This document shows, piece after piece, positions 2,710 to 62,868 of a stretch of 64,000 bases of DNA. The DNA lies in the NCBI GenBank assembly GCA_043797125.1, contig JAZDPX010000033.1, positions 98,527 to 162,526 of the forward strand. Direction: 5' to 3'. Below the pieces are notes generated by a model that was not told the DNA's origin, made no database searches, and was given only the letters and a program-made list of their open reading frames with translations. The position numbers and the translations under genes were made by a program. How positions within the stretch are numbered: the first letter of the stretch is position 1; every line of letters begins with the position of its first letter. The DNA comes from Candidatus Omnitrophota bacterium. Its GTDB lineage: Bacteria > Omnitrophota > Gorgyraeia > JABMRG01 > JAFGKX01.

Positions 2710-2734
2710 GTTAAATACGCTTCACTTTTCTCCT

Positions 2735-2761
2735 TGCAATACAGGTTTTATATGATATAAT
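2735..2761 (+). promoter_or_regulatory. Putative sigma-70 promoter with extended -10 (ttgcaa ... TGaTATAAT); predicts a leaderless transcript for the 2771 ORF
   Basis: ttgcaa at 2735-2740; tgatataat at 2753-2761; ATG at 2771, about 9 nt after the -10 element. Confidence 0.4.
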
Positions 2762-2770
2762 TTCTGTGAA

Positions 2771-4024: not shown

Positions 4025-5254
4025 CTCTTCTTCAGAAATATTACACACAGCAACTAAAATACCGGCAGTTATCCAGAAAATCGTTACTATTTTCAACGCA
4101 TATAACGAAGTATCAAAAAATGCGTTAACTAAATACGCGATAATCCCCGATACCAGGCTTAACAGAATGATCTTATAAAATTCGTCTTTTGTCTTCTTAA
4201 AACTCGACCTGGCCTTGGCAAATATCCTGAATAAAAAAAGTAAAAAAGTCCCAAGCCCAATCACGCCTATCTCCGCTGCCATCTGCAGGTATGAATTATG
4301 CGAATATATGCCGCCCCTGGGGTGCACTTTAAAGTTAGGGGCGACCAACGTGTATGTATTTATGCCCCAGCCTAAAAATGGCCTTTCCTTAATCATCTTA
4401 ATAGCTTCCTGCCAAAGGCCTATTCTGTATTCACTATACAATGTCTCCATGCTGTTTATTTCCTTTACCCTGCTTTCGACCTTCTGCGGCATAAAAAATG
4501 AAGTTATAAGCAATATGGCTAAAAAGCAGGCAAATATTTTTTTATTAAGCGCAAAAGTAAAAAATGACATGGAGATTAAAAACGCGATCCACGACGCGCG
4601 CACATAACTAAAAATAAGGGCAATAAACGCCGCTAAAAATAAGATAAAAAACATAAAGCGGTATTTAAAAAAATATTTCTTGCCAGCCGCCAGCCCAAAC
4701 AAAAGCGGGATATATGTAATCAAGTAGTTTCCAAAATCATTATGATGTAAAAAAGATGCAGTAATCATATAATCAAGATGCAGCGGGTATTTTCGGATTA
4801 AATCAAAGCCCGCGTAATACTGTATTGCGGCATCCAGGCACATTAAAGAAAAAGAAGCCAATAAAACAGAAATTAATATCTTAAGCCTTTTCTGCTCGGA
4901 AAACATATCCACTACGATTAGAAAAAATAGCGCGTATTCTATTGTTTTTGTGAACAATGCCTTTATGCTGTGGGAAAAGGAGAAGCTAAAAAGGCATGAT
5001 AAAAAATTAATAAAAATAAAAACTCCGAGCGCAAAAAAAATAAAATTGTATTTGTAAGCATACTTTTGAAAGGTTTTGTCTTTAAGCCAGAGTAAGACTT
5101 TTTTCACAACCCACGCTACAATTCCAATAGAACCAAATATTTCAATCCCAGCATTTGAAAAAGGTATTATAAATACCAAGGCATACATCGAGTACGTGGT
5201 AATGATATTTAGGCTTCTAATAATTTTTGACAAGCTTATTTCCTTTTTAAGCAA
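4001..5254 (-). CDS. O-antigen ligase/polymerase family (Wzy_C-like) polytopic membrane protein
   Basis: About 10 TM segments and the periplasmic loop motif 'YSHNSYLQMAAEIGVIGLG' (H-N-x-Y-L-...-E-x-G). Confidence 0.6.
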   Translation of the reverse strand: MLKKEISLSKIIRSLNIITTYSMYALVFIIPFSNAGIEIFGSIGIVAWVVKKVLLWLKDKTFQKYAYKYNFIFFALGVFIFINFLSCLFSFSFSHSIKALFTKTIEYALFFLIVVDMFSEQKRLKILISVLLASFSLMCLDAAIQYYAGFDLIRKYPLHLDYMITASFLHHNDFGNYLITYIPLLFGLAAGKKYFFKYRFMFFILFLAAFIALIFSYVRASWIAFLISMSFFTFALNKKIFACFLAILLITSFFMPQKVESRVKEINSMETLYSEYRIGLWQEAIKMIKERPFLGWGINTYTLVAPNFKVHPRGGIYSHNSYLQMAAEIGVIGLGTFLLFLFRIFAKARSSFKKTKDEFYKIILLSLVSGIIAYLVNAFFDTSLYALKIVTIFWITAGILVAVCNISEEELESDSAG

Positions 5255-5258
5255 GCAT

Positions 5259-6896: not shown

Positions 6897-7944
6897 AATC
6901 TTTAATAACTTTTTTTGCGATTTCTAAGGGATTATGCCATCTCTCGACATACGCGCGGCTTTTTTGCCCCAGACCCGATAAAGTTTCTCTGTTTTTTACG
7001 ATTTCCTTAAGAACGCCGTATATGGTATCGGGCTGCGCGTTGATAACAGGCAAATCATTTCTCATCTGCTGAGGAATAAACTGTAAATCCTCACGCTTAA
7101 TATAACAAACCACGGGTTTGCCGCACGCCATTGCCTCAACTGAAACCGCCCCGTACCAGCCTATTAAAAGCTGATCCACCACAAGGTCAGCCTTTTTATA
7201 AATATCCTTTAGGCAATTATGGGGTGTTTTCTCGACGACCAACAGGTCCAGGCGATGGCCTTCCTGCTTTAATCTGTTCACCGCGTTGATAATATATTTT
7301 GTCCCCTTTATCTTTCTCTTGCTCGGCAAATGAATAATGTGAAATGTATTTTCAAAACCGTTGCCTTGGGATGGCGTCCATTCCCTTATATCTACGCTTG
7401 CGTAAGGCAAGAATTCGGCTTCAGGGCAGCTGCGGATAAGGTCGGGGTTTAAGGCGTATATTTTATCCGCATAGCGCCTTATGCTGTTAATTCTTCTTTT
7501 CTTAATAAAATCCGGCACCATGCTGTATCTAAGGGCGCTGGTTTTCATTAAGCGGGCGTCTGTTCCCTGCAAAGTAAAAAATATCTTCTTGCCTTTTCTC
7601 TTCAGCAGCGGCAGGTCAAGATGGTTCAGTAAAAAATACGGATAATCAAGGATGGATTTGCCGAAGTTAAAATGAAATACGTTATATTTTTCAATGGCAG
7701 AGCAAAGGAACCAATAGCGTTTCAGTTCCCTGCCGGGCGAAAATATCTTTTTTGCGCCGAGGTTTATATCCGCCGGATAACCGTAAGATGAGCTTCTGAA
7801 AACCATAACATCACTATTAACGCTATGCGTTCTCTCGGCTCTGGATAAACCCCATGGGTTTCCTCCTGTATCTGTCGGGCTGTGCAAAACATTTATTGTG
7901 TTTATTAGCATTTCTAGTTCCTTTTGACGCCGCTTGCCCGCCAA
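6859..7944 (-). CDS. GT-B fold glycosyltransferase (GT1/GT4-like)
   Basis: C-terminal Rossmann half with 'KADLVVDQLLIGWYGAVSVEAMACGKPVVC' resembling the GT4 E-x7-E region. Confidence 0.5.
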   Translation of the reverse strand: MAGKRRQKELEMLINTINVLHSPTDTGGNPWGLSRAERTHSVNSDVMVFRSSSYGYPADINLGAKKIFSPGRELKRYWFLCSAIEKYNVFHFNFGKSILDYPYFLLNHLDLPLLKRKGKKIFFTLQGTDARLMKTSALRYSMVPDFIKKRRINSIRRYADKIYALNPDLIRSCPEAEFLPYASVDIREWTPSQGNGFENTFHIIHLPSKRKIKGTKYIINAVNRLKQEGHRLDLLVVEKTPHNCLKDIYKKADLVVDQLLIGWYGAVSVEAMACGKPVVCYIKREDLQFIPQQMRNDLPVINAQPDTIYGVLKEIVKNRETLSGLGQKSRAYVERWHNPLEIAKKVIKDYENALCNGYKKR

Positions 7945-8708
7945 CTGATACCTTTATACAAGCTTATGCGGATATCGTTGAATTCGTTTGCGTTAAACCA
8001 GCTGCACACTTGCTTGTAGCTGATAAAATCAACCTGCGGAGCGTTGAGCTTGTCAAAAACATTAAGAAGGTTGCGCTGAAATGAAAATCTGCGAAAATTT
8101 CCAAAATACTCATAATAGGGCATCCTTTTTACGGGCAACCTATACAAGGAATACACAACCGGGTATAGCAACGCGGTAATAAATCCGGAGATTAGCAGCA
8201 GCGCTGTTCTTGATATTTTTTTCAGCAAGAGTTTCCTGGCCGGCTCAACTATCTTTTGCATTAAAAGATTGCCTTCCTTAGAATAAACCCATACAATCAA
8301 TTTGCCTCCGGGCTTAACATGCTTCTTAAGATTAGAAAAAGTCTTATCCGGGTTATCGGTATGATGAATTACACCTATGGCTATAACAACGTCAAATAGT
8401 CCGGGCAGGTTCATAGCGGCGATGTCATCTTCAATAAATGCTATATTGCTCAAGGAACCGCACCTGTTTCTAGCTATATCAATTGTATTTAAATCTACGG
8501 CTGTTACAGCTTTTGCGTGCTGGGCTATAAGAAATGTGTGGTGTCCCCCGCCGCAACCGCATTCTAAAACTGACTTGGATCTAATATCGTCAAGCGTATT
8601 GGGATATATCCATTCTGAAAAAAGAGATGATTCCTCATCCCTAAGCATCTGCCACTGTTTGCGCCACTGGTCTTGCTTGCTTTGCTTTGAGGCTTGCGCG
8701 CTTTTCAT
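7914..8708 (-). CDS. Class I SAM-dependent methyltransferase (start set at the internal Met forming an ATGA overlap with the upstream GT2 stop)
   Basis: 'VLECGCGGGHHTFLIA...DLN' motif I; 'KPGGKLIVWVY'. Confidence 0.8.
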   Translation of the reverse strand: MKSAQASKQSKQDQWRKQWQMLRDEESSLFSEWIYPNTLDDIRSKSVLECGCGGGHHTFLIAQHAKAVTAVDLNTIDIARNRCGSLSNIAFIEDDIAAMNLPGLFDVVIAIGVIHHTDNPDKTFSNLKKHVKPGGKLIVWVYSKEGNLLMQKIVEPARKLLLKKISRTALLLISGFITALLYPVVYSLYRLPVKRMPYYEYFGNFRRFSFQRNLLNVFDKLNAPQVDFISYKQVCSWFNANEFNDIRISLYKGISWRASGVKRN

Positions 8709-9580
8709 GCGTTCGACCTTCTGTAGAGTTTGGTTAAAAGAAAGGCCAAGAGCCCGACACAAAAAATAGGCATAAAACTTGCGATGCATATCGAGGCTAT
8801 TATACTGAGAAGCTTTACTCTGAATATAAAATAATTTCCAACCGCAAGAGCGATCCCGAAAAGTATATTAAGAGTACCCAGCAAAAGAAATAATTTTATC
8901 GGGTTATAAAAAAGTATCGCCTCAACTATTATCTGCGCTGTGCGCAAGGTATCGTAAAAATGCCTTACCTTGGAGGTGCCTTCTCTTTTATTCATCTGCA
9001 CTGGAACAAACTTGATATAATATTTGTTCAGCGAAAAGATAAGCGTTAACGTCGTGGTAAAAGAAAAGCCTCCGCACAAAAAAGGCTTAAACTGCAGCAC
9101 CAGGTCTTTCTTAAAAATACGCATTCCCGAATTTACGTCAGGAATTTTTCTGCCGCAGGCATATTCCACTAAAAACTGAAAGACGCTTCGCGCCGGCCTT
9201 TTTATCACGCCTTTTCTGAATTCCTTGCCAAAACGGGCGCCGACAACCATATCGTAGCCTGGATAGTACGAAAACAGCTTTGGCAAGTCATCCACCGGAT
9301 AAGTTGCATCCGCGTCAATAATGCCTATGCAGTTATAACGCGCAGCCTCGATACCGTCAAGCAATGACTTGCCATAGCCCATATTCTCGGGATGGGTTAA
9401 TAGAGTCATTTTTTTGGTCTGACACGCCTTTATCATCTGCTGCGTGTTGTCTGTTGAGCCATCATCGACAACCACAATCTCATAATCTTTAAAGGCTGCG
9501 TCCGCCACAGAGACTAGGCGAAGGAGAACGTTTTTAATGGCTTTTTCTTCATTATACGCCGGAACGATAATGCTAATCAT
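8705..9580 (-). CDS. GT2 glycosyltransferase (Dpm1/GtrB-like, C-terminal TM helices)
   Basis: 'ISIIVPAYNEEKAIKNVL...VVVDDGSTDNT', DxD region, C-terminal hydrophobic helices. Confidence 0.85.
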   Translation of the reverse strand: MISIIVPAYNEEKAIKNVLLRLVSVADAAFKDYEIVVVDDGSTDNTQQMIKACQTKKMTLLTHPENMGYGKSLLDGIEAARYNCIGIIDADATYPVDDLPKLFSYYPGYDMVVGARFGKEFRKGVIKRPARSVFQFLVEYACGRKIPDVNSGMRIFKKDLVLQFKPFLCGGFSFTTTLTLIFSLNKYYIKFVPVQMNKREGTSKVRHFYDTLRTAQIIVEAILFYNPIKLFLLLGTLNILFGIALAVGNYFIFRVKLLSIIASICIASFMPIFCVGLLAFLLTKLYRRSNA

Positions 9581-9583
9581 ATT

Positions 9584-21959: not shown

Positions 21960-22820
21960 TTACCTCACCTGTATTATATCCTTGCGCAACGCCATTATCT
22001 GGTCGAACATAAAACCAAAAAATATCAAATTTAAACCTGTAACCAGTAATAATAGCCCTCCGGAAGAAAATCCGGATGTTAATAAAATTGTTTTAATCGA
22101 CCACAGGACTCCCGACAAAAATAATAACAGCCCTATGGGCAAAAAAACCTTTAAGGGTGAAAACATAACTATCCTAAAGATTAACACTATAAATTTCATA
22201 CCATCTCCGAGCGGGCGTATCTTGCTTATCCCGCCTGCCCGTTTAAAGCATTTTACAGGAATAAACAAAACATTTAAGCCCGACATTAAAAAACACATTG
22301 TTGAGGTGGTGGGAAACGAAAAGCCGTCCGGATAAAGATTCAGAAATTTAAGCGCGTAGCTGCGTTTTAATGCGCGAAAACCCGATGTCATATCCTTAAT
22401 GCGAAAATTTGTTATAAAGCTGCCTAGCCTGCTGAATATCCAATTTGCCATATTTCTGTTCATTTTTGTTTCAGATTCTTTTGTGCGAGCCCCAACAACA
22501 AGATCATATTGCCCAAGCCCTGTTAGGAGATTAGGGATATCCTCCGGTTGATACTGGCCGTCTGCATCAAAAACTACAATGAATTCCGTAGCAGCATTAA
22601 GCAGGCCTGTTTTTACAGCTGCGCCGTTTCCTTTGTTGTAGGGATGCGAAATAACCCTGACCGAGGCAAAGGCCTTGGCCTTTTTTTCAGTTTGGTCCGT
22701 AGAGCCGTCGTTTATTACAATTATCTCTTTCGGAAATCCGAGCCGTTGTATCCCGTCAATTAGCTTAGGTAGATTTGCCTCTTCATTATAAGCAGGTATA
22801 ATAATAGTAACTTTTTCCAT
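21960..22820 (-). CDS. GT2 glycosyltransferase
   Basis: 'VTIIIPAYNEEANL...VINDGSTDQT...FDADGQY'. Confidence 0.85.
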   Translation of the reverse strand: MEKVTIIIPAYNEEANLPKLIDGIQRLGFPKEIIVINDGSTDQTEKKAKAFASVRVISHPYNKGNGAAVKTGLLNAATEFIVVFDADGQYQPEDIPNLLTGLGQYDLVVGARTKESETKMNRNMANWIFSRLGSFITNFRIKDMTSGFRALKRSYALKFLNLYPDGFSFPTTSTMCFLMSGLNVLFIPVKCFKRAGGISKIRPLGDGMKFIVLIFRIVMFSPLKVFLPIGLLLFLSGVLWSIKTILLTSGFSSGGLLLLVTGLNLIFFGFMFDQIMALRKDIIQVR

Positions 22821-23693
22821 CTATTTTCTCCCCCTTATCGTAATTCCGTAAAAATCCACGTGCTCATGGACAGTTCTTAAGCCAGCCTTTTTAAACCAGC
22901 TTCTCACCTCTTCAACGGTATGCCGCGACGCGTCCTGCGGATGATACCAGTCGTAATTTATAGCAACGTTTTCCTTGAATGAAAGCTTTGGGTTCCAGAA
23001 ACACTTCATAAAAAAATGATACACAAACCGCTGTAGCGTATACTCTCCTTTTATAATCTGTAATACATCAACATTCGGTATCTTTATTTTAACATTACTT
23101 TCCGAAAGCTGTTTTCCGAGCCTGGTGATCTGCTCACATTCTTTCATAGCCTTTTTATAGCCGAGACACGAAACCTTGCTTCTTATGTAATCGTCCGCAT
23201 ATTCACGCGTTGGGGATTTCTTCCTGTACACGTATATCGCTATTTCGCCCCCCCTTTCAAGGCAGGAACATAAATTCTTAAAAGCCTTCAGAGGATTACC
23301 TGTATGGTGCAGAACTTCCTGGCAATATATAAAATCAAGCTTCCCGAGGCTGGAAAGATCTTTTAGCAGATCCTTGCTGAAAATGCTCACATTTTTACAG
23401 CTTAGAAGATTCTCTCTTGCCACCCGCGCAGATACCTTATCTATTCCAATGATCTGTGTATCGCGAGGGTCGGTATATTTGCGCATTAACGCCGTAACCC
23501 TGCCGTTTCCGCAGCCTGCGTCAAGAATTCTTTTCTTTTCGGACAAATATCGTTTAAAAGCGCCTGCGCTTTTAAACCCGTTACGGCGCAATATCCATAA
23601 AAAGATATCCGAATTTTCTCTTAGCGTCTCAGCAAACGCCAACTTTTTGTTGCGGAACCATTTGTTCCTGAAACTTTTGGTTGTATTGGTCAT
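22821..23693 (-). CDS. Class I SAM-dependent methyltransferase (start moved to internal Met)
   Basis: 'ILDAGCGNGRVT' motif I; 'ERGGEIAIYVY'. Confidence 0.8.
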   Translation of the reverse strand: MTNTTKSFRNKWFRNKKLAFAETLRENSDIFLWILRRNGFKSAGAFKRYLSEKKRILDAGCGNGRVTALMRKYTDPRDTQIIGIDKVSARVARENLLSCKNVSIFSKDLLKDLSSLGKLDFIYCQEVLHHTGNPLKAFKNLCSCLERGGEIAIYVYRKKSPTREYADDYIRSKVSCLGYKKAMKECEQITRLGKQLSESNVKIKIPNVDVLQIIKGEYTLQRFVYHFFMKCFWNPKLSFKENVAINYDWYHPQDASRHTVEEVRSWFKKAGLRTVHEHVDFYGITIRGRK

Positions 23694-26600
23694 GCGTACC
23701 TTTTTTAGCGAGTATACCCTTATAAACAGCGAGCATTCGCTCAAGGGTCTGTTTAGAGCTATGATATTTTTCAATCCAGAACCGGGCCTTTTCCCTGTGG
23801 TCTGAAACAAAACCGGGCCTTAGCGCTACAAATAACTGCTCTATAATTTCATCTTCTGTTTGGGCAGAGAGCACCGGAGGCGGTTCGGGGAATGTTATGT
23901 CCATGTCGCCGGGTTTATAATTTACTATAACCGCAGCGCCGCAGGCAAGCGCGCGCGGCGTGACTCCGCTAAACGACGGATAAACAAGCTGGTCAAGCAC
24001 GACATCAGCCGCAGACAGCCATTGTGCGAGCTTTACTCTGCCAAATGGGCCTACCCACTCAACAAGATCATTGCATCCGAGTTCATTTATAAGGTGTTTG
24101 CTTTTTTGTATTTCCTTTCCCCATGGTATGAAAAAAACACGAAATTTTCCTTTTATAAGCTCTCTAAGCCTTGGCAAAATCTTTATATACCTGTTAACCC
24201 CTTTTTCCTGCCAATCATGTCTTATCGGGCAAAAAAATATGTAGTCCAGATTTCTGGTGCGGTTTATAAGATTTCGCGCTTCTTTTTGATAAGAAAAATT
24301 TTCTTCATCAAGGGGATGCGGAAGCAGTTCAAAATTCTCGATACCTAAGCGATACGCGCTCTGGATGCAGTCTGTGTTTGTAACAAATACATAATCCGCC
24401 ATTCTATAGCTTAAAGCCGTAAGCCGGCTAAGGGGTGAATCATAAAACGGCCCCTTATACGCCCAGTCTATCTCCGGAGAATCACGCAAGGTACCGTGTT
24501 CAAAAGCTACATAGGGATGAAAAACATTCAAAATTGGAAATATGGGATCTGTCGCATACCCTTGGATAATATCATAATGCTGAAATAAACCTTGCAATAA
24601 ACTGACTCTATGCTCATATGGCAGCAAGTCATCCATAGTAAGCCTATCGGGCCTATCGGGAAAACATTTGCTAAATTTATCTATCAACCAACTACAATGC
24701 GCCAGGTATTTTTCATGAAAAGGTTTACCATTGAATGTATAAACGTCATGTCGCGCCTTTAAACCCGCTGATAGTTTTATTAACGTTTTATCATGCAAAA
24801 TGCGTATTATCCGGTTTATAACGCTTGGCACTTGCAGAATTTTCTTTACAGCCTTGCCTTTTTGCAGTAATTGAGTGTATGAGGTCTTGCATACTATCTT
24901 ACGGGCATTTTCAAGAGACAGCCATAATCCCTCTGATTCTTTTGACATATTTAAATTTTTTGCCGCTAAATATCTCACACATAAATCAAACGGCCCCTGG
25001 GCAAACCAGCGTGGCCTTTCGTAACCGCGCAGATTAAGCCGCCACCAGTCAGGGTGTTGTTGGTCATTTATTGTGCCCTCAAAGTCAGCTTCTTCCCACT
25101 CAGGAGAAGACATAACCCAGTAATTATCATAACAAAGGACATCTGCTTCTACGCCTTCGCGACGAAGGAACTTAGCATTGTAATACGCATTATTTGCGAT
25201 GTTGCCTATATGAAGCACTCTAAACGGGCGTTTAATGTTGTTTGTTTCGTTTTGAGTAACGGCTACCTTCATTCCGTATATATCTAAAAGCTGCTTGCTG
25301 AGTTTATCGTTATCATGTAACTTTAAAATGCTCTGACGCGCTTTAAGTTTCTTTTTTTCGTATTCATCCGGATTTGTGATATAAAATTCAAGAGTTTTTT
25401 CAAGGTCTTTAAGGCTTGTGAAAATAAAACCTGAGTCTCTAAGCTCTTGTGTCATGAATTCAGGGCGGGCATATGTAATTGACGGCACATCAAGAAACAT
25501 GCTTTCAATCTGGGCATTGGCATAGTAACCCATTTTAAGTTTACCTACGCTAAAATCAGCGTCACGGTATTCGGCAAGAGCCTGCTCGGGAGTTACCCCT
25601 TTTAAAAATACAAAATCAATGTCATGCCCCTTATCGCGAAGGTTGTCAATAGCCTTTCTAATCATGCTTGTCCCTTCAATGCCCGGATGATTGGTAACAT
25701 GGACTATTTTTACCTTTTCGCCTGCCTTAAACGCTGCTTTGCGGTTTCTGAATTTTTCATAATCAATACAAGGAGTGAAAAACGGGAAATGTATCGCATC
25801 CGGAATAAATTCTTTCATATCGGGCGTGGTTACAAGCGATATATCTACATATTTTTTTATTCTTTGTATTCTTTTTTTACCTTTGCGGCATACCCAGCCC
25901 TCATAATCGCAATGCTGGCAAATATTAACATCGGGGTGTAATTTTTTATTTTTTTCAGGATCGCGCGCTTCGCAGCCGCGATAGTGCAAAACTATTTTTC
26001 TGCCCATTAGCTTTAAAAAGGGAAGCTCCCACCCTGTCTGGGAAAGAATGATGCCGAAATGCGAATGTATAACCTCATATCTTGCTACAACTTTCCAAAA
26101 AAACAAAAACTCCTGCCATGGCCCGACAGGGTAAAAGTTGTAATCGTATTTATCCCACCATGGGCTTTTGCCACCCACAGCTAGATAGTCGGCTTTTATC
26201 CCGTGCCGGCGCAATATACGCGTAGTATAATAAGGTATGTGCACCATATATGAAATATGCAAAACAGAATCTTTATACTTTTTATTTCTTAAGGCAACAG
26301 CCAAAAGGCTATTTACAGGATACATAAGCATAAAAAAGTTGTGTGATGCGAATCTGTAAAGCGGCTTTAGCATAAAACGTTTGCAAAGTGTAAGCATAGA
26401 AGACTTTAATCTATAACTAAATTTAATAATAGCATTACGAATACGCCACCATATAGCTATTATCAGTATTTTAAAAAAATTAGCGGCAGTATAAAACGGC
26501 CTGTGGTATAAATTTCCGGATTTTTTAATTATGGTTTTTATGCCAAGAGCAACTACTCCCATCAGCTTTTGCAATTTATACAGGGGTATAATCCTATAGG

Positions 26601-26745: not shown

Positions 26746-28495
26746 ATTTTCTCCAAAGGCTAAACACAAATACATACCAGATGCGCGCAGCGTGCCCCGA
26801 GGCGCCGCGCGTAAAATCATCGAGCATAGCTTTTACATAATCAAAATTAAGCCATTCATAAATAGGGTTTCTTGCGTCCATTAGGTGCGATTCTATTATC
26901 GGTTGCAAGGGCCCGCGTAACCATTCAACAATGGGTATGCCAAAGCCCTGTTTCGGCCTTTCTATAAATGATGACGGGTAAAAACGCTCCGCGCTTTTTT
27001 TTAAAAGATATTTTGTCTTTATTCTTCCTAAGAAATTATTCCTTATGCGCAATGACAAAGGCAGTGTAAATGCCTGTTCGACGATTTTATGATCCAAAAG
27101 CGGCACCCGAACCTCAAGAGAATGCGCCATGCTCATTCTGTCAACTTTTGTAAGAACATCGCCCGGTAGATAGGTCTTAAAATCCTGCGCCTGAAAAAAT
27201 AACACCGGGTCGATATCAGTCTTTGTCTTAAGTGAAAAACTTATCCCCTCCGCAACAGGGAGATCGTTTGCAAAAAGCTCTTTAAGCATTGTTGTGTCGA
27301 AACCCTGCCGCTGCGCATTGTACAGCTGTCTGTGGCGCTCTTGCGGTTCGTCTATATTTTTATACGTATCCTGATAACTGTTATAGCCGCAGAAAAGCTC
27401 ATCTCCGCCATCACCTGAAAGGACCATCTTAACCGACTCGGCCGCTTCCTTTGAAACATAATACGTGGGTATGGCTGATGAATCCCCGAAAGGCTCTCCA
27501 AAATGCTGGGCTATTTTAGCGAACATCTCTTCTGCCAGTGTGGGGGTCACTATCTTTTCGTAATGGTCTGAGCCTATAAATACGCTCGCCTTTCGCGCGT
27601 AAGGGGTTTCCGAATGTTTCTGTTCACTAAACCCTATCGTAAATGTCCTTACGGGCTCCTTCATCTGTTTTGCCATAAGCGCGCTTACAAGGCTTGAATC
27701 AACACCACCGCTTAAAAAAGCCCCAAAGACAACGTCGCTTCTGACATACATCCGCATAGTTTCATCAAGAATGCCGTTTAAGTCATCAAGCCATTTTTCT
27801 TCTGTCTTCTCAGCAATGCCAGCTTCAATATCCCAATATTTAATATTTTCCCTCCTGCCGGTGATAGTATCTATCTCCAGATAATGACCGGGTTCAAGTT
27901 TATATATGTCTTCATAGATGGTAAGTGGTGCTGGTATATATTGATAGCGGAAATACTGGCACAAGCCACTGTGCGAAATCTTACGTTTAATATATGGCAA
28001 ACTAATAATAGGCAAAAGCTCAGAACAAAACACTGCGCATACAGGACTATAATAATAATACAACGGCTTGATTCCTACCCTGTCTCTGACAAGGTAGAGC
28101 TTACTCTTTGTGCTATTGTAAAGAGCAAAAGCAAACATCCCCCTAAAACGTCTGAGGCAATCAATGCCCCATTTTTCATATGAACGTAAAACAACTTCAG
28201 TATCCGATTCTGTTTTAAAATCAAATTCTGCCTTCAATTCTTCTCGCAGCTCAATATAATTATAGACCTCGCCATTATATGAAATAATTACGGTTTCACT
28301 ATCATTACATAAAGGTTGAGCGCCAAATTCAGGATCAATAATAGCAAGCCGGCTATGTGCAAGCCCAACACACTTATCTTGCCATATACCATTACCGTCC
28401 GGCCCGCGATGCACCAGCATACAATTCATTTTATCTAATTCATTGCGCTTAACTACCTTACCGTCAAAATTTACTATTCCAGCGATTCCGCACAT
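26729..28495 (-). CDS. Asparagine synthase-family amidotransferase (second copy)
   Basis: 'MCGIAGIVNFDG'; 'FLSGGVDSS'. Confidence 0.9.
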   Translation of the reverse strand: MCGIAGIVNFDGKVVKRNELDKMNCMLVHRGPDGNGIWQDKCVGLAHSRLAIIDPEFGAQPLCNDSETVIISYNGEVYNYIELREELKAEFDFKTESDTEVVLRSYEKWGIDCLRRFRGMFAFALYNSTKSKLYLVRDRVGIKPLYYYYSPVCAVFCSELLPIISLPYIKRKISHSGLCQYFRYQYIPAPLTIYEDIYKLEPGHYLEIDTITGRRENIKYWDIEAGIAEKTEEKWLDDLNGILDETMRMYVRSDVVFGAFLSGGVDSSLVSALMAKQMKEPVRTFTIGFSEQKHSETPYARKASVFIGSDHYEKIVTPTLAEEMFAKIAQHFGEPFGDSSAIPTYYVSKEAAESVKMVLSGDGGDELFCGYNSYQDTYKNIDEPQERHRQLYNAQRQGFDTTMLKELFANDLPVAEGISFSLKTKTDIDPVLFFQAQDFKTYLPGDVLTKVDRMSMAHSLEVRVPLLDHKIVEQAFTLPLSLRIRNNFLGRIKTKYLLKKSAERFYPSSFIERPKQGFGIPIVEWLRGPLQPIIESHLMDARNPIYEWLNFDYVKAMLDDFTRGASGHAARIWYVFVFSLWRKYVHQG

Positions 28496-29192
28496 TGTTT
28501 TTTATAAATTCCCAATAACTACGTGGTTTTAGGCAATAAAAATAATGATCTATTTCAAAATTAGTAATAACGACTTTTTCGATAGTAAAGTACTTTTTAA
28601 AGCTTTCCTCAAACCATGGTTTATCAAAATGAAAAAGGTGGTATTCATCAGCAGGTTTTATTTTCTCCCCGTGGGGATTATAATATTCAGCGCCTTTTAC
28701 AAATGCCAACCATGCAAGAAAAAAACCGTTTTTTTTGACAACCCTATATATTTCACTGTAAGCTTTATCAAGCAAAAAGACATGATCAAGCGAGGTTGCG
28801 GCTATAACAACATCAAAAAAATCTCTCCTCAACGGTAAGAATTCTGCAACACCTTTTTTAAAACAAAAAGGATGGTCCCGCGGCTCAGATATGGGATCAA
28901 TGCCCCATATTTTGTTTAAAGAATATCCTTCTAAATAAAGCGGCAACGGTTGCGGCCCACATCCGACATCCAAAATACGCCCTTTAAGAAATGGGGTTAT
29001 AAAATCCTTAAAGTGCGTTGCTATTTTGTGGCCTTCCACGCTGCAACTGTGCGCAGGAAACCCCGTATACTCCTTACTATTGACTGTCAGCAGCTCACGC
29101 CAAAGCCTGAAGGCGCAAGGGGCTGTCTTTTCTAAACGATGAAAGCTGCGATATAGATTTTTGTAATTCTGATTGCAATTAATGCTTCGCAT
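28464..29192 (-). CDS. SAM-dependent methyltransferase
   Basis: 'ILDVGCGPQPLPL' motif I; 'KKNGFFLAW'. Confidence 0.65.
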   Translation of the reverse strand: MRSINCNQNYKNLYRSFHRLEKTAPCAFRLWRELLTVNSKEYTGFPAHSCSVEGHKIATHFKDFITPFLKGRILDVGCGPQPLPLYLEGYSLNKIWGIDPISEPRDHPFCFKKGVAEFLPLRRDFFDVVIAATSLDHVFLLDKAYSEIYRVVKKNGFFLAWLAFVKGAEYYNPHGEKIKPADEYHLFHFDKPWFEESFKKYFTIEKVVITNFEIDHYFYCLKPRSYWEFIKNNVRNRWNSKF

Positions 29193-30429
29193 GCTGACTA
29201 TTTTCTTTTACTTTTGCTATACCTTTCATATCAAAATCGCCCTGGAATAGGCCTGTCGATTCGACATTAAAAACATAGGCATCGCCAGCATGATGTAAAA
29301 CTGTAAAGTTGCCATCGTCAGGCATATGCGCTATGCCACAGCACAGAAAATATTGGCCGCTTGCGAGGTTGCACACCAACTCAAATTCCACTTCCTGTTC
29401 CTGGCCTGCTTTTATAGAAACAAAGACATTTTGCACATAACTTGCCAGGCCGTATAAAACGCCGCCGCCGGGCTTCTGTATCCTGAATCCAACGCTTAAT
29501 CTTTCATAATCAGTATCGGCAAATACGGTGGCGCGAATATAATATTTTTTATCGTAAGTAAGCGTATTGACTTTGTTATACGCCTCATCAAAAATTAAGA
29601 TGTTTTTTACATATACGGGGGATGGCATTGCGCTTGCTACGCCTGACAGATCGCCAATAGTTGTTATTACATTTTCCTGTTTTTGTACTAACGCCCTCTC
29701 CTCATTTAAAATCTGCTCATAGCGATATCCGACATGGCGCGGTTCGTCGCGGCATATGAGCCGGCCCTGATGCAACAGAATGGCTGTATTGCATAATTCA
29801 TAAATAGAATTAAGACTATGGGTAACAAAAAAGACTGTAGCGCCATTTTGGGTTATCTTGCGGATACGGTTGAAGCATTTTTCAGCAAATAGGGTATCGC
29901 CCACTGAAAGTGCTTCATCAATAATAAAAATATCGGGCTCAACGCTTACTGCTACTGAAAATGTTAAACGTGCCTGCATTCCGCTTGAGTAAGTCTTAAA
30001 TGGCTGGTCAATTACAGAACCCAGCTCGCTAAATTCGATTATACCGCCTATTTTGCGGTTTATCTCTTCCCTGCTCATACCCATGCATAAGCCGCCCATA
30101 TGTATATTTTCGCGGCCTGTATATTCGCCGCTAAAACCTGTGCCGAGTTCAAGTATTGCCGAAATCTTACCGTTGACCTTTACGCTTCCGCATGTTCTAT
30201 CAAGCGTTCCTGTCAGTATTTTTAAAAGGGTGCTTTTTCCAGCGCCGTTTCTTCCCACAACACCAACTACCTCGCCGCGCTTGACCTCAAAGGATACGTC
30301 TTTTAGCGCCCAGAATTCGCGGTGCTTGGGTTTAGCGGTCAGAACTTCCCAAAACATATCAGCCGGCTTAGCGTAAATCTTAAACGCCTTGGAAAGATTC
30401 TTAACATCTATTGCGATATTATTGTTCAT
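29179..30429 (-). CDS. wzt: ABC transporter ATP-binding protein, Wzt-like (polysaccharide export) with C-terminal extra domain
   Basis: Walker A 'GVVGRNGAGKSTLL', signature 'YSSGMQARL', Walker B 'IFIIDEAL'; about 170-aa C-terminal extension; ATGA overlap with the permease gene. Confidence 0.85.
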   Translation of the reverse strand: MNNNIAIDVKNLSKAFKIYAKPADMFWEVLTAKPKHREFWALKDVSFEVKRGEVVGVVGRNGAGKSTLLKILTGTLDRTCGSVKVNGKISAILELGTGFSGEYTGRENIHMGGLCMGMSREEINRKIGGIIEFSELGSVIDQPFKTYSSGMQARLTFSVAVSVEPDIFIIDEALSVGDTLFAEKCFNRIRKITQNGATVFFVTHSLNSIYELCNTAILLHQGRLICRDEPRHVGYRYEQILNEERALVQKQENVITTIGDLSGVASAMPSPVYVKNILIFDEAYNKVNTLTYDKKYYIRATVFADTDYERLSVGFRIQKPGGGVLYGLASYVQNVFVSIKAGQEQEVEFELVCNLASGQYFLCCGIAHMPDDGNFTVLHHAGDAYVFNVESTGLFQGDFDMKGIAKVKENSQHAKH

Positions 30430-31262
30430 AGTAAATCGCCGAACATTATTTTGAAGCGCGCAAATAACGCGTAACCCGCGCAGAAAACAAAAAGCGAGCC
30501 CGCGGGGAATATAAACCATGCCCAGGGGTGCTGGAACCCGCAAAAATAAAATATATCCTGATAGCACCAACTCATATAGCTAAAAGGATTAAGATACAAT
30601 ACGCCTTTAAATATTTTAGGCACCATATCAGGAAGATAAAAAACCGGCATAATATATAAGCCCGCAACGCAGAAAACCTGGACAAAGTCTTTGGTGTCGC
30701 GCAAATAAACGCCTAAAACCGAAAGAATATATGAAACCCCTGCCATGGCCATCAGCTGAAAAATAAAAACAACGGGTATTAAAATATGCATCCACGTCAG
30801 GCTGCCGGCCTTTGTAAAAACATACATCAGGAGTAAAAATGTAGCTACAAACTGCGTTATAGACGAGGCTATTACCCCTTTTACAGGAAGAACCTCTATG
30901 GGAAAAACTGTCTGCTTGACCAGGTTCGCGTTATTAATAATAACAGTACTGCTTTTTGCCATGGATTCCTGAAAACTCATCCACGGTATCAGGCCGCTTA
31001 AAAGATATGTTGTGTAATCAACCGGGAATGCGCCGCGCGAGGCTATCTTCACCTTAAAAACATAAACAAATATAAAAACATATATTGCCATCAATATCAA
31101 CGGATGGCCTATGACCCATAACCTTCCGAATACCTGGCCTGCATATCTGTCCGATATTTCGCGGCGGGTCATCTCCCAGGTAAGCTGCCTGTATTTTGTA
31201 AGCAGGCTCACTATTTCCCTGAAGGCCTGAAAATGTTTCTTGAGATCAAACAACCTTTTCAT
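30426..31262 (-). CDS. wzm: ABC-2 type transporter permease, Wzm-like
   Basis: 6 TM helices, ABC-2 family architecture, translationally coupled to wzt. Confidence 0.8.
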   Translation of the reverse strand: MKRLFDLKKHFQAFREIVSLLTKYRQLTWEMTRREISDRYAGQVFGRLWVIGHPLILMAIYVFIFVYVFKVKIASRGAFPVDYTTYLLSGLIPWMSFQESMAKSSTVIINNANLVKQTVFPIEVLPVKGVIASSITQFVATFLLLMYVFTKAGSLTWMHILIPVVFIFQLMAMAGVSYILSVLGVYLRDTKDFVQVFCVAGLYIMPVFYLPDMVPKIFKGVLYLNPFSYMSWCYQDIFYFCGFQHPWAWFIFPAGSLFVFCAGYALFARFKIMFGDLL

Positions 31263-36576: not shown

Positions 36577-36578
36577 CT

Positions 36579-56080: not shown

Positions 56081-56114
56081 ACCATAGACTATCGACTATT
56101 GACTATAGACTATT
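56081..56114. repeat. Heptamer tandem array downstream of the 1007-aa gene
   Basis: accatagactatcgactattgactatagactatt. Confidence 0.9.
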
Positions 56115-59124: not shown

Positions 59125-59160
59125 CGACTATAGACCATCGACTATCGACCATAGACCACT
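59125..59160. repeat. Heptamer tandem array between the two giant genes
   Basis: cgactatagaccatcgactatcgaccatagaccact. Confidence 0.9.
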
Positions 59161-62100
59161 CTACGCCGCCTGCGCTATCGCGGCGGCTTTCTTGTTGCCG
59201 TTTACAAGGTCATATACATTTATAACATAGCTATTTTTGTTTTTGCCGTTGCTTTTACCGTTATATGCGCCTACAAGTTCCTGTATAAACACGCATAACT
59301 CACTTTCAATATCAACGTTTTTAACAAACACCTCAAAGTCATCTTCACTTAAGGCTGTCTTTTTTAGTTCTTCTGCCAGAAGTTCTTCCATTGTATTTTC
59401 ACCTAAGCGAATGGTTTCCCTTGTAACATCGTAATCCTCGCCAATCTCTTGTAAGGTTTCGGTCTCGCCTACTCCAAGCATTGGCAGGATTCTTTTTATA
59501 AAGGTTGTCACCATTCTGTTAAATTTATGCACATTATATTCTCTCCACTTTTTGAATAATTTTTCTGCAACTATTCCTATGGCTTCAAATATTTTATCTT
59601 GAATTAGGGCGAGGTCTTCTATTTTATCATCCGCAATAGTGCTCTCAATTGTGTAGCCTTCATCTTCATTGCCTAAAGGCGTGCTCAGTAAAACGGTTGA
59701 GTATTTCATATAATTTATTACATTAGTTACTTTTGTTTCACTCATATCAATCGCGCTGGCTATTTCCGGAATAGTCAGTTTCCCGGATATAGGGTTAATA
59801 TCTTTCACCTGGCATCTTCTTTTAAATTCCTTAATCTGATTATATATATATGAGGATATTTTTGTATCGTTAAGATAGAATCCTATCTGGCTATCAATAA
59901 TTTGTTTAATTATCTTAACAGCAAATGTGGAAAATCTATAACCTTTTTGCGGTTTAAACTCTTTGGCTGCTTTCATAAGGCCGTCGTGAGCAGGGCCCAA
60001 TAATTCTTCCAAAGGTAAGTTATATGACCAAGCATAGCTTTTTGCAATGCTATATTCAAGCCTTAGGTTTGACTCAACAAGCTTATTTCTTGCTGCGGTA
60101 TCGCCGATCTGCGCAAGCACTCCATATTTAATTTCACCCAAGGGGGTTAACATAGAAAAATCGTACATCCTAGCAAGGTGCTGGGCAACAGGATCTGGTA
60201 TTTCTTTTGATTGTTTTTTTGGCAAGCTTTTGCCATTAGGAATAAACGCGTGCTTTTCGGGTATGGATTCAAAGAATTTTTTACCCTCTTTTCTAAGTTT
60301 ATCCTGATACCTGCCTTCATAGCTTACAAATTTGCAGACGGCTTTAGCCAAAGTTAGCACTTTATCTTCTTCTTCTTTATATTCTTCTGGTAATTCGTTA
60401 ATGATACATAAAATAGCTGTATTTAAATATATTTGGCTTTCATGCTCACTATTAAAATCCAGAATATCTATAAGCTGTTCAATTAACGCCGTCGTCTGTT
60501 CAGGAGACAATTGCATTAATTGCCTAAAATTAGTTAATACCTTATTTTTATCTTCATCAGCTTTTTTGCCTCTATATATTGCATCCGCCAAAAGCACTAA
60601 ATAGAAATCGACTCCGCGATCTTTGAATGGCAAAGTTTTATTTTCTAAAAACTGCAATCTATCTTTTTTGAGCCTATCTGCCGTATTTAGAAGTGTCGTT
60701 ACTGTAATTTTTTCCTGCTTATGCGCGGGGCGAGATCTTTTCTTGTGTCTTTGCGCTGTATGTTGCAAAATATCAATTGCTGGCTCCAGAATGCCTCTCT
60801 CCAAAAGTTCTTGCGCAAACTTAACGGTAAACTGGCTTATGGGTATTAATTTTTTAAAATAGGCATTTCTTATTAAAGTAATTTTCGGCCTTGACTTTTT
60901 ATTTTTTGAATATTTCCCGGCATCATAAACATAAACTTTCCAGCCGTGTTTAACATCTTCTACGGGAACAAATGCCGGTTTTTTGCCTGCTAATGATTTT
61001 AGGCCTCGCACTTCCAGCCATCTATTTCTATATGCCAGTTTTATAATGCCGTTTTTGGGAACAACATAAGGATGATAATATTCCCTGGGGGCCACTGGGC
61101 CACCATAAATATCTTTATTGCATAAAACATAATCTAAAAATGCTATTTTTGAAAAATCAATAGGCATATGCATTGGAAAATTATCGAGGTAATAATGCCT
61201 TGCAACCACGACTTTCTCTTTCCCTGTTTTATACCATATCTCTTCATAAGGCCCATAGGATGGGTCGTTTTCAACTGTTCCTAAGGCTTTTTGCGGCATC
61301 TTTTTGTCTTTGAATATTCCCTTGGCAATAGGGTACAAAGCAAAATCAAAACTATCTTTTCTTCTCATATCCGACATAGTCTTGGAAGCCTCATACCGGA
61401 CGGTGCCGTCTTTTTCTGTTACGCGCCTTACAGTTAATTCTAATATTCTATCCTTCACTGGTTTAATATCGTACCTGCCGTTGTAGCAATCGATGGCATC
61501 TAAAAAAGCCAGGTCAACCTGCCTGCATTTTGTTAGTTTGATGCCAGGGCCGCAATGTCTGATTTTTCTTAACATGCTTTTATAAGTTGCTAAGGGTTTC
61601 GGTGAAGTGGATTTTTCATATTCTGATTCAAGATAAATATTAATAACCTGCCTTTGGTTTATATCTTTCTCGACTTTTATGATAGCGGGTTCATTAAGCA
61701 GCGCGCCTTCCCCCATGCGGTCTTTCTTTATAAAAAATGATATTGCGTCATCGCGCCGGTATTCGTTTATAAAAGGAACGACACAAACGCCGCATCCCTC
61801 TCCGCCGTCTTTAATTGTCGTTTTATAAATTCTACCGCACTCTTGCAACTCTATTCCCTTGTGCGCTTTTAAAATATCGTGTTTTGCAAGATTAATCTGC
61901 ATAGTTTTCGAGCGCAATGTTTTCCATTTATCTTTTCCCTCAATAGGGCTAATATCTTTAAAATGCTTATATGTTACTAATGGCTTGGGATTTTTCTTAG
62001 CATAATAATCGTCTTTAAGATAAATATTTATTACCTGGCCGTGGTTTTTATCGTTCTCAACCACGACAGCCACATCTTTATATAAAAGATTTGCATTTTT

Positions 62101-62748
62101 AAATTTCTTTGGAGGTATATTGAAGGTGGTGGGTGGGTATGGATTATAGCCGTGCCTGTGGCAACTAACCTGTATAATGCCTCCTTTTAATATTTTTGTT
62201 ATATATGGCCTTGCTAATGTTTCTATTTCCCGCAGACCGTAGGTTGCGGCTAAAACATCCATAGACGGCAAATTAACCTGTACGGCTTTTCCCTTTTCAG
62301 CGTAAAATTTATATGTACAAAACGGCTGCTCGATATATTCTTTATTATAATCATCTAAATAATAAAAATTTAGTAACAGGCCATTATTTACCTCATCTGG
62401 CAAGCTGTGGTTTGGATCGTATTCCCCCAAAAAAACTATATTCGCATTCTTTGCTTTTTCGCCTTCTGAAGTAAAGGAAAAATATGCTATCACACCATTG
62501 CTTGTAAGCGTTTTTTGTGCTTGGCTATCAGAGGCAGTAATTAATTTATCACCCTCTCTTAAGCTTAAGCCTGTATTCTTGTAATCCACAATCCTAGCTT
62601 TTACCTCATCGTAAGAGCTTCCGCTTATACACACGAGCGGTGTTTCTTTAGAGTTAACACTTGCTATTGGCCGTAAGGCATAACTCTGGCATGGATTTGC
62701 CGTGGCAGCAATACTAAATACTAATATAATCGAAATTATTCTCTTCAT
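59161..62748 (-). CDS. 1195-aa protein: N-terminal signal-peptide-like leader, about 850 aa of repeat-containing and Cys-containing domains, and a C-terminal complete sigma-70-like domain (regions 1.2, 2, 3, 4) at about 59400-60200
   Basis: 'DPVAQHLARMY...NLRLEYSIAKSY...GLMKAAKEFKPQKGYRFSTFAVKIIKQII...' (region 1.2/2; canonical TWWIRQ is VKIIKQ here), region 3 'LTIPEIASAIDMSETKV...', region 4.2 'TLQEIGEDYDVTRETIRL'; N-term 'MKRIISIILVFSIAATANPCQSYALRPIAS'. Confidence 0.6.
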   Translation of the reverse strand: MKRIISIILVFSIAATANPCQSYALRPIASVNSKETPLVCISGSSYDEVKARIVDYKNTGLSLREGDKLITASDSQAQKTLTSNGVIAYFSFTSEGEKAKNANIVFLGEYDPNHSLPDEVNNGLLLNFYYLDDYNKEYIEQPFCTYKFYAEKGKAVQVNLPSMDVLAATYGLREIETLARPYITKILKGGIIQVSCHRHGYNPYPPTTFNIPPKKFKNANLLYKDVAVVVENDKNHGQVINIYLKDDYYAKKNPKPLVTYKHFKDISPIEGKDKWKTLRSKTMQINLAKHDILKAHKGIELQECGRIYKTTIKDGGEGCGVCVVPFINEYRRDDAISFFIKKDRMGEGALLNEPAIIKVEKDINQRQVINIYLESEYEKSTSPKPLATYKSMLRKIRHCGPGIKLTKCRQVDLAFLDAIDCYNGRYDIKPVKDRILELTVRRVTEKDGTVRYEASKTMSDMRRKDSFDFALYPIAKGIFKDKKMPQKALGTVENDPSYGPYEEIWYKTGKEKVVVARHYYLDNFPMHMPIDFSKIAFLDYVLCNKDIYGGPVAPREYYHPYVVPKNGIIKLAYRNRWLEVRGLKSLAGKKPAFVPVEDVKHGWKVYVYDAGKYSKNKKSRPKITLIRNAYFKKLIPISQFTVKFAQELLERGILEPAIDILQHTAQRHKKRSRPAHKQEKITVTTLLNTADRLKKDRLQFLENKTLPFKDRGVDFYLVLLADAIYRGKKADEDKNKVLTNFRQLMQLSPEQTTALIEQLIDILDFNSEHESQIYLNTAILCIINELPEEYKEEEDKVLTLAKAVCKFVSYEGRYQDKLRKEGKKFFESIPEKHAFIPNGKSLPKKQSKEIPDPVAQHLARMYDFSMLTPLGEIKYGVLAQIGDTAARNKLVESNLRLEYSIAKSYAWSYNLPLEELLGPAHDGLMKAAKEFKPQKGYRFSTFAVKIIKQIIDSQIGFYLNDTKISSYIYNQIKEFKRRCQVKDINPISGKLTIPEIASAIDMSETKVTNVINYMKYSTVLLSTPLGNEDEGYTIESTIADDKIEDLALIQDKIFEAIGIVAEKLFKKWREYNVHKFNRMVTTFIKRILPMLGVGETETLQEIGEDYDVTRETIRLGENTMEELLAEELKKTALSEDDFEVFVKNVDIESELCVFIQELVGAYNGKSNGKNKNSYVINVYDLVNGNKKAAAIAQAA

Positions 62749-62807: not shown

Positions 62808-62836
62808 ATTATAGCAGGTGTTTTCACTTAAGTCAA
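62808..62836 (-). promoter_or_regulatory. Canonical sigma-70 promoter TTGACT-17nt-TATAAT driving the sigma-fusion gene
   Basis: Minus strand: ccTTGACTtaagtgaaaacacctgcTATAATataatacc; -35 at 62831-62836, -10 at 62808-62813, ATG at 62748. Confidence 0.55.
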
Positions 62837-62868
62837 GGGATAATATTAGAGATTGCTGAAATACTGCT

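Follow-up and report, generated by a model that had tools for sequence, protein, structure and literature searches.

Sigma-70 domains behind export-type leaders in a family of modular Omnitrophota proteins

A sigma factor domain preceded by an export-type leader is encoded in a 64,000-nucleotide (nt) stretch of a Candidatus Omnitrophota metagenome-assembled genome (MAG; GenBank assembly GCA_043797125.1, contig JAZDPX010000033.1, positions 98,527 to 162,526), which we refer to as the window. The gene, open reading frame (ORF) 1, occupies positions 59161 to 62748 of the minus strand, starts with ATG and codes for 1195 amino acids (aa) in a single unbroken frame of 3.6 kb. Sigma factors are archetypal soluble cytoplasmic initiation factors. 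Judging by its sequence relatives, ORF1 belongs to an apparently undescribed and Omnitrophota-restricted family of modular sigma-70 proteins, in which genuine sigma-70 domains stand behind export-type leaders in a phylum of ultra-small suspected predators or parasites. The sigma-70 domain itself is known, and the database entry already names the protein “MAG: sigma factor [Candidatus Omnitrophota bacterium]”. We found no description of the architecture, of the family with its multi-sigma members, of its large domain of unknown fold or of the pair of terminal signals present also on unrelated neighbors. The initial annotation of this DNA had called the architecture unfamiliar, and the literature searched indeed contains no description of signal-peptide-bearing or secreted sigma factors or of sigma domains in Omnitrophota proteins.

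The sigma-70 domain of ORF1 (residues ~841 to 1136) runs collinearly from region 1.2 to region 4.2. The Pfam model Sigma70_r2 (PF04542) scores 29.4 bits against a cutoff of 24, while r3 (20.1 versus 25.3) and r4 (17.4 versus 24.1) fall just under their cutoffs. The NCBIfam models of RpoS (5e-28), RpoD (1e-25) and MzaA (4e-25) all match aa ~840 to 1136, and phmmer against PDB sequences gave collinear alignments of aa 841 to 1117 with SigA and RpoS that extend over regions 1.2 to 4.2 (E ~1e-22). The AlphaFold2 (AF2) model is confident for this domain, and Foldseek matched it to sigmaS and SigA chains at a probability of 1.0. All these searches agree with the initial annotation, which had read the C terminus as a complete sigma-70 domain whose residues for melting and for reading the -35 element are degenerate. 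Y430, W433, W434, Q437, and T440, which serve in melting and -10 recognition, are not kept as a set, F-A-V-K-I-I-K-Q-I-I-D standing in their place, so that the canonical FSTYATWWIRQ reads FSTFAVKIIKQ. TKISSYI replaces IRIPVHM, with loss of the RIPVH motif of region 3.0, and region 4.2 carries TRETIRLGE in place of TRERIRQIE.

Among the known classes, the group 1/2 sigma-70 factors (RpoD/SigA and RpoS) are the closest, since they share with ORF1 the collinear regions 1.2, 2.1-2.4, 3.0-3.2, and 4.1-4.2 and provide its best sequence and fold matches (SigA and sigmaS). However, an 840-aa extension comprising the leader and two family-specific domains replaces region 1.1 in ORF1, W433/W434, Y430, and RIPVH are lost, and some relatives have two to four sigma domains per chain. 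The scores also remain far below the equivalog cutoffs of RpoS (98.4 versus 378.7 bits) and RpoD (90.9 versus 572 bits). An assignment to the extracytoplasmic function (group 4) sigma factors is at odds with the presence of regions 1.2 and 3, and TIGR02937 reaches 41.6 against a cutoff of 42.9. With its degenerate melting, -10 and -35 determinants, ORF1 seems to be a specialized sigma factor, or a nonmelting one that competes for or tethers the core enzyme, rather than a housekeeping sigma factor. MzaA, a component of the MZA anti-phage system, also has a sigma-70 domain at the C terminus of a larger protein, and both NCBIfam and PADLOC match it over the sigma part of ORF1. We rejected a role in MZA defense because the score is 88.6 against 800 bits, the PADLOC match covers only aa 885 to 1117, the N-terminal parts are unrelated and there are no Mza partner genes nearby.

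The region upstream of the sigma domain is made up of two domains specific to this family. In the AF2 model of the whole ORF1, built from a 17-sequence alignment (mean predicted local distance difference test [pLDDT] score of 77.6), residues 1 to 42 are disordered, residues 45 to 650 form a confident beta-rich domain, and residues 650 to 830 are all-helical and lead into the sigma helices. Modeled alone, the beta-rich domain reached a pLDDT of 85.8 and a predicted template modeling score of 0.78, and appears as a succession of units, each with a hairpin, a short helix and a strand. The best kept are the DxNHGQVINIY...KPLxTYK units at aa 227 to 262 and 356 to 391, which the initial annotation had described as two tandem modules. 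These two units stand, but others in the model are more degenerate, and the upstream part consists of conserved beta-rich and helical domains, not merely of two repeats. The same annotation had noted Cys-rich stretches, a description that does not hold: Cys makes up 1.3% of the protein (15 of 1195 residues), and among the three closest copies C322 alone is invariant. The beta-rich domain had no sequence match in Pfam, NCBIfam or PDB and no fold relative in PDB or BFVD; the best hit in BFVD (E of 1e-3, probability of 0.35) was to the OB-like (oligonucleotide/oligosaccharide-binding) proteins LEF-3 and SSB, at most a hint that the modeled domain might be an array of small nucleic-acid-binding barrels. 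In the helical domain, Y810 and G812 are invariant and N776 and P830 nearly so. A match at aa 768 to 861 to bpX0, a domain of the MoxR-vWA system, was dismissed as due to chance, since it appeared in 1 of 17 family members.

Word-index homologue searches returned almost nothing beyond P0002, an Omnitrophota protein of 2015 aa, and missed nearly the whole family. In an exhaustive search of 1.84 billion representatives, a profile of three N-terminal copies (the N-terminal 850 aa) found 67 cluster representatives of 85 to 7240 aa, 31 of them below 1e-30. All members with an organism name belong to Omnitrophota, as do all three genome loci; one further member has a product name only. P0002 aligns over 95% of the length of ORF1, unbroken along aa 24 to 1159, and after this first copy of the architecture starts a second one. 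With jackhmmer, the intact unit (beta-rich, ~aa 40 to 650; helical, ~650 to 840; sigma, 840 to 1140) was recovered in at least 16 proteins from different assemblies, at variable positions such as 989 to 2093 of 2400 aa or 424 to 1572 of 1588 aa. About a dozen further proteins carry the shorter unit of helical and sigma domains without the beta-rich domain. The proteins that host the conserved unit range from 0.6 to over 6 thousand aa, and P0025, P0026, P0005, P0002, P0018, and P0069 have two to four separate sigma-70 domains per chain (four by jackhmmer in P0025, where Pfam r2, r3, and r4 are all strong). Sigma70_r2 matched all 17 family segments. A search of metagenome contigs for more loci gave 307 pattern matches, none of them confirmed.

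Conservation, taken for each alignment column as the share of its most common residue and then averaged, is 0.56 in sigma region 1.2, 0.51 to 0.55 in region 2, 0.48 to 0.51 in the beta-rich domain, 0.42 in region 3, and 0.40 in region 4, with invariant or near-invariant columns limited to the helical domain and sigma regions 1.2 and 2. Since regions 1.2 and 2 are the best conserved parts of the sigma domain, binding to the core RNA polymerase is probably the function common to the family. Some members retain FSTYATWWIRQ, IRIPV, and TRERVRQIEAKALRKLRHP in full, together with an RpoD-type C terminus; others are degenerate at those motifs like ORF1. The canonical motifs point to descent from genuine primary-type sigma factors. 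Elsewhere in the chains we found helix-turn-helix (HTH), S-adenosylmethionine (SAM)-methyltransferase, HD, HATPase_c, and radical-SAM/B12 domains. A single chain, P0060 (6375 aa), unites domains of the HATPase_c, PrmA/TrmB-like, HTH, pentapeptide, and sigma types. The genes for sigma-domain giants adjoin other giant genes (617 to 8953 and 8964 to 16166 at locus L004; 8773 to 27900 at locus L005). In a separate observation, the first homologue search returned P0003 (1493 aa), which represents another, unrelated type of oversized sigma protein. Its canonical sigma-70 domain is N-terminal and lacks a leader; there follow a second segment similar to region 4, a methyltransferase-like region and, at the C terminus, an RNase H domain.

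The long proteins of Omnitrophota have been surveyed before, and 94% of them carry a signal peptide or transmembrane (TM) segment with metabolic or regulatory domains behind it, a noted paradox (10.64898/2026.06.07.730766). ORF1 shares with these giants the phylum and the placement of such signals before domains of cytoplasmic type, and its relatives reach 7240 aa, but it is itself only 1195 aa long and has no TM segment besides the leader. Sigma domains are not mentioned in the literature on these proteins (10.64898/2026.06.07.730766; PMC10066038; 10.1101/2023.11.21.568195).

The leader of ORF1 has every sequence feature of a Sec signal peptide cleaved by signal peptidase I, as the initial annotation had proposed: a positively charged n-region, an h-region of 14 residues and, at positions -3 to -1, S-Y-A, with a putative cut at NPCQSYA|LRP. 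The protein has no other hydrophobic segment. Upstream of the conserved A24, translation can start only at M1 (nine sense codons separate it from the preceding stop, none of them a possible start), and hence the hydrophobic N terminus is translated as part of ORF1. Of the family, 45 members appear to be full length, with an initial Met and at least 600 aa, and 36 of these had a comparable leader, with K/R in the n-region, an h-region of 11 to 15 residues and a c-region of the form [SA]-[WYF]-A that obeys the -3/-1 rule (examples are QSYA, VSYA, ISWA, IAWA, ISYA, and DAFA). The leaders of LptD and of a DUF3187 outer membrane protein encoded in the window have the same form.

Two further signals, both overlooked in the initial annotation, accompany this leader. 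One is the [AT]-L-x-P motif, found 5 to 25 residues past the h-region in three flavors (Table 1). Type 1 occurs eight times after leaders and three times internally (aa 1171 of P0002, aa 615 of P0012, and aa ~719 of ORF2), each internal site lying in a linker at the start of a further module. The motif does not depend on the beta-rich domain: it directly precedes the helical and sigma domains in P0040 and an HTH domain in P0054, and in P0006 a distance of 400 residues separates it from the beta-rich domain downstream. The other is a C-terminal [SAT][AVL] ending, often preceded by a helix of the form DDLxxLN[DE]RMxxLLxS[AV]. It closes 26 of the 57 family members with at least 600 aa, many of the 57 being truncated by contig ends, versus 1 of the 41 other ORFs of the window (Fisher P = 6e-7).

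The [AT]LRPxA motif and the tail are also common to ORF2, the neighboring gene 22 nt downstream of ORF1, for which the NCBI entry (V2A72_06430) places the start at M9 and gives 999 aa. ORF2 has a leader of the ORF1 type, followed by CLRPMA at aa 29 to 34 (59037-59054), an internal SSALRPPA (56967-56984) and the end VAVDAAA-COOH. In its body, helical repeats rich in K/I/L/E follow the pattern “KKILPDIINELPPAEIKKIAISSINKLPPDSVKEIL”, and 15-nt units repeated in tandem at 57488-57547 code for (GKKPA)n. No homologue of ORF2 was found among 5.8 billion clusters. We discarded the notion of a paralogue of ORF1 or a known anti-sigma factor, as ORF2 has no similarity to ORF1 and no match in Pfam, NCBIfam, PADLOC or PHROG. 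At the independent locus L004, an unrelated methyltransferase protein of 2778 aa encoded directly upstream of the sigma protein P0010 starts with MIIKNSKSRWPLIVRVISCLIIISFLFHDISWA|YP...DKLAPKSFF, a leader with an LAP motif, and ends in ...ENALISA. The presence of leader, motif and tail on unrelated neighbors at two loci suggests a class of proteins handled by common machinery. The [AT]LxP motif and the helix-[SA][AV] tail shared at both loci point to an unrecognized sorting or processing system, which could bear on why the long proteins of Omnitrophota pair signal peptides with domains of cytoplasmic type.

Table 1. Features of ORF1, its neighbor and the intergenic sequence (window positions), with the variants of the [AT]-L-x-P motif
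Feature	Positions	Strand	Remarks
Promoter-like site, sigma-70 type	62808..62836	-	TTGACT, 17-nt spacer, TGcTATAAT (extended -10)
Sec-type signal-peptide-like leader, aa 1-23	62680..62748	-	n-region MKR, h-region IISIILVFSIAATA, c-region NPCQSYA
ALRPIAS, type 1 motif, aa 24-30	62659..62679	-	Homology to P0002 copies 1 and 2 starts exactly here; disordered in AF2
Beta-rich multibarrel domain, aa 45-650	60799..62616	-	Family-specific; basic (net charge +27, isoelectric point 9.3)
All-helical domain, aa 651-840	60229..60798	-	Family-specific; invariably N-terminal to the sigma domain
Sigma regions 1.2 and 2.1-2.4, aa 853-962	59863..60192	-	Core-binding part conserved; melting/-10 residues replaced (F-A-V-K-I-I-K-Q)
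Sigma region 3, aa 963-1045	59614..59862	-	RIPVH of 3.0 lost; HTH of 3.1 and finger-like acidic loop of 3.2 kept
Sigma region 4, aa 1046-1135	59344..59613	-	HTH of 4.2, TLQEIGEDYDVTRETIRLGE, canonical in part
C-terminal tail, aa 1136-1195 and stop	59161..59343	-	Low confidence in AF2; ends AAAIAQAA-COOH
(GTCKATR)x4.5 heptamer tandem repeat	59126..59156	-	Between ORF1 stop and ORF2 start
ORF2, 1007 aa	56115..59138	-	Orphan, rich in K/I/L/E; 22 nt downstream of ORF1
[AT]-L-x-P motif, type 1			[ATC]LRP[IMLPE]A
[AT]-L-x-P motif, type 2			L[SA]PW[LV][SA]SQ
[AT]-L-x-P motif, type 3			TL[AV]P[ST]SR[LF]NP

The reading that we favor, tentatively and with a probability of roughly 40%, is that ORF1 is a membrane-targeted precursor whose sigma module binds the RNA polymerase core in the cytoplasm of the producer, under the control of tethering and proteolysis. 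The hydrophobic leader would direct the precursor to the cytoplasmic membrane, and the two terminal signals common to ORF1 and ORF2, the [AT]|LRPxA site and the small nonpolar C terminus, would govern its handling. Cleavage at [AT]|LRPxA would expose an N-terminal Leu-Arg, after which the sigma module could act on the RNA polymerase of its own cell. Sigma activity would then be gated much as in pro-sigmaK/pro-sigmaE, BldN, and the sigma systems controlled by regulated intramembrane proteolysis (RIP). N-terminal Leu-Arg is a ClpS-type destabilizing N terminus in the bacterial N-degron pathway, and small nonpolar C termini act as protease tags in the RIP pathway, e.g., the RseA fragment ending in VAA. 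By analogy, we infer that a Leu-Arg N terminus together with an Ala-rich C terminus, resembling the ssrA or RseA-fragment tags, would fit proteolytic dosing. If so, bacteria would tether a primary-type sigma factor at the membrane and dose it proteolytically, a mode not seen before.

Two observations favor a cytoplasmic sigma module. The HTH, SAM-methyltransferase, HD, HATPase_c, and radical-SAM/B12 partners need cytoplasmic cofactors, which counts for that location. In addition, a crude hydropathy scan of three proteins found K/R-rich flanks at the internal TM hairpins of P0042 and P0069 and at the TM segment of P0043, which is followed by KKIRHKTR; by the positive-inside rule, the flanking soluble domains, sigma included, would face the cytoplasm. 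The favored reading also draws on the conserved fusion, on the high conservation of sigma regions 1.2 and 2, on the type 1 motif found both behind leaders and in module-opening linkers, and on the known pro-sigma precursors.

Several points weigh against this reading. The positive-inside argument comes from that crude scan of three proteins and conflicts with the logic of the leader, which looks like a genuine cleavable Sec signal, indistinguishable from those of LptD and the outer membrane protein in the window. As ORF1 has no second TM segment, canonical insertion would export the whole chain, sigma domain included. About 840 residues separate leader and sigma domain, against the 20 to 27 residues of the pro-sequences of sigmaK and sigmaE. 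A scan of 43 ORFs of the window, covering every one that flanks ORF1 but neither six at 814..9580 nor three at 21960..23810, 28464..29192, and 30426..31262, gave no match to a peptidase family (S2P, SpoIIGA-like or other). Moreover, a cut at A|LRP, binding to the core and association with the membrane are each putative.

The comparison with known precursors is likewise divided. Pro-sigmaK is membrane associated and cut by the membrane protease SpoIVFB (PMC11486902), and N-terminal pro-extensions are known from other sigma factors, including BldN of Streptomyces (PMC7826278). Like pro-sigmaK (SpoIVFB), pro-sigmaE (SpoIIGA), and BldN, ORF1 is a sigma factor made with an extra, hydrophobic N-terminal segment that has to be dealt with. 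However, the pro-sequences of those factors are short (longer in BldN), abut the sigma core, lack the n/h/c structure of Sec leaders and have a dedicated protease each, whereas in ORF1 the ~840 intervening residues are folded and no dedicated protease is encoded nearby among the 43 ORFs scanned. The RIP systems (RseA-sigmaE, RsiV, and RsgI-SigI) have in common with the control proposed here the membrane tethering and the proteolysis, but in these a separate anti-sigma factor is the membrane protein, whereas in ORF1 the hydrophobic segment is borne by the sigma factor itself. The evidence on the site of action conflicts, and the three explanations offered in the initial annotation (a RIP-like tethered sigma factor, a decoy or a secreted protein) are narrowed by it but are all live options.

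A true Sec signal could instead mean that the protein is exported and, under the guidance of the [AT]LxP and C-terminal signals, delivered to a bacterial host or prey, where the sigma module would bind the RNA polymerase core of the victim, canonical copies redirecting transcription and degenerate ones like ORF1 blocking it, while the basic barrel array would bind nucleic acid or aid entry. We consider this the main rival, somewhat less likely than the tethered precursor. In its favor, the textbook signal-peptide features extend over most full-length-looking members (the 36 of 45 counted above) and over the unrelated ORF2 and 2778-aa proteins, ORF1 has no stop-transfer segment, and the C-terminal helix with its small nonpolar end is positioned like C-terminal secretion signals. 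The cofactor-dependent partner domains would work equally well in the cytoplasm of another cell. Sigma region 2, the best conserved part, contacts a universally conserved surface of core RNA polymerase. Omnitrophota have been proposed to be predators or parasites, with long proteins that almost all bear signal peptides or TM segments (PMC10066038; 10.64898/2026.06.07.730766; 10.1101/2023.11.21.568195). Against it stand the lack of precedent for a secreted bacterial sigma factor in the literature searched, the absence of secretion or injection genes flanking ORF1 in a window that is mainly an O-antigen cluster, and the unknown machine that proteins of 1 to 7 thousand aa would require to enter another cell; the positive-inside analysis of the internal TM hairpins favors the cytoplasm, and a bacterial sigma factor would be of no use against archaeal hosts. 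Type I secretion substrates carry an uncleaved C-terminal signal, and ORF1 has a conserved C-terminal tail, but it differs from them in its Sec-type leader, the lack of RTX repeats and the absence of an adjacent pair of ATP-binding cassette (ABC) and membrane fusion proteins. In its fullest form, which we regard as somewhat less likely still, this idea would have Omnitrophota export sigma-70 polyproteins as interbacterial effectors by means of leader, [AT]LxP motif, and tail, a new sorting system shared with ORF2; they would be a cellular analogue of the phage-encoded sigma take-over, with canonical modules that reprogram the victim and degenerate ones, such as ORF1, that jam it. Sigma factors shipped out of the cell would be categorically new.

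The leader might also remain uncleaved as a permanent anchor, with nothing released and the sigma domains bringing the core RNA polymerase to the membrane, for instance so that envelope or giant genes are transcribed, translated, and their products inserted in a coupled way, or so that the core is sequestered, while the basic N-terminal domain would bind DNA or RNA. Chains with two to four sigma domains, and internal TM hairpins in some members, would suit such a multivalent membrane scaffold, as would the strongly basic N-terminal domain and the loss in ORF1 of the melting residues with retention of the core-binding region. We find this improbable, as the h-region, at 11 to 15 residues, is on the short side for stable anchoring and the conserved -3/-1 site points to cleavage. 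Furthermore, a scaffold leaves unexplained the [AT]LxP motifs at internal module boundaries and the conserved C-terminal tail, and it meets the same problem of orientation as the tethered precursor. Very improbable indeed is an artifact or a decaying gene, that is, a chimera in which the assembly joined a sigma gene to the gene of a secreted protein, or a functionless sigma pseudogene, in spite of the MAG source, the degenerate melting residues and a local G+C content (0.37) slightly under the window mean (~0.41). The initial annotation had allowed for a chimeric join, but the same collinear domain order recurs in the independent assemblies, and together with the continuous homology to P0002 across the junction this excludes a chimera or two separate genes. 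The intact 3.6-kb frame, the similar conservation of N-terminal domain and sigma region 2, and the confident AF2 folds of all domains also argue against an artifact or decay.

The promoter-like site upstream of ORF1, seen by the initial annotation as TTGACT-17-TATAAT, is indeed there, ~55 nt 5' of the ATG. It matches the consensus at 11 of 12 positions, the top score within 55.5 to 64 kb, and is known from this consensus match only; promoter-like matches overall showed no enrichment relative to shuffles (32 against 28.8 expected). A Shine-Dalgarno sequence could not be seen. That ORF1 has a canonical -35/-10 promoter of its own implies that a separate, canonical housekeeping sigma factor exists. 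ORF1 and ORF2 would form a two-gene unit with its own promoter, and are probably cotranscribed. We found no riboswitch or other known RNA in the 5' region of ORF1 or in the window. A cluster of GC-rich hairpins at 62868-63015 (for example, GGGTTCGAT/ATCGAACCC, GGCGCCAT/ATGGCGCC, and GTTGCCCAAT/ATTGGGCCAC), without match in Rfam, is situated upstream of the ORF1 promoter, on the side of the DUF1015 gene. These hairpins are probably terminators of that gene or a repeated element.

Nearly all genes of the window are on the minus strand. The pair formed by ORF1 and ORF2 is flanked on one side by the DUF1015 gene and on the other by genes for a B12-binding protein, an acetyl-CoA carboxylase (ACC) carboxyltransferase subunit, a MalK-type ATPase, two GGDEF proteins, a ROK kinase, and LptD. 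Library scans of the window ORFs found no secretion, injection, protease or anti-sigma genes near ORF1. Farther along, a large O-antigen/polysaccharide cluster makes up most of the window.

The heptamer repeat that follows ORF1 is one of at least five arrays of four to five GTCKATR units on the minus strand of the window (59126-59156, 56080-56110, 45761-45791, 42420-42443, and 780-810). They lie directly after stop codons or at gene junctions, with 16 pattern matches versus none expected in shuffles. As they follow ORF1, ORF2, and unrelated genes alike, they seem to be a genome-wide junction element. A second intergenic tandem repeat, (ATTGGTTA)n / (TTGGTTAA)n with runs of (ACCACTC)n, is also found at gene junctions (15-57, 36578-36614, 37006-37040, 40638-40666, and 41351-41424).

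The polysaccharide cluster at 9584-32424 (minus strand) contains three large multi-TM ORFs without match in Pfam (10965-12539, 14316-15878, and 15910-17982), three AsnB-like amidotransferases, a carbamoyltransferase, a Wzt-type ABC ATPase and two B12-binding radical-SAM proteins, one of them fused to a methyltransferase. A LAGLIDADG-like ORF (44315-45340, minus strand; PF14528, 5e-10) stands alone inside the sugar-nucleotide/O-antigen cluster and may be the relic of a free-standing homing endonuclease.

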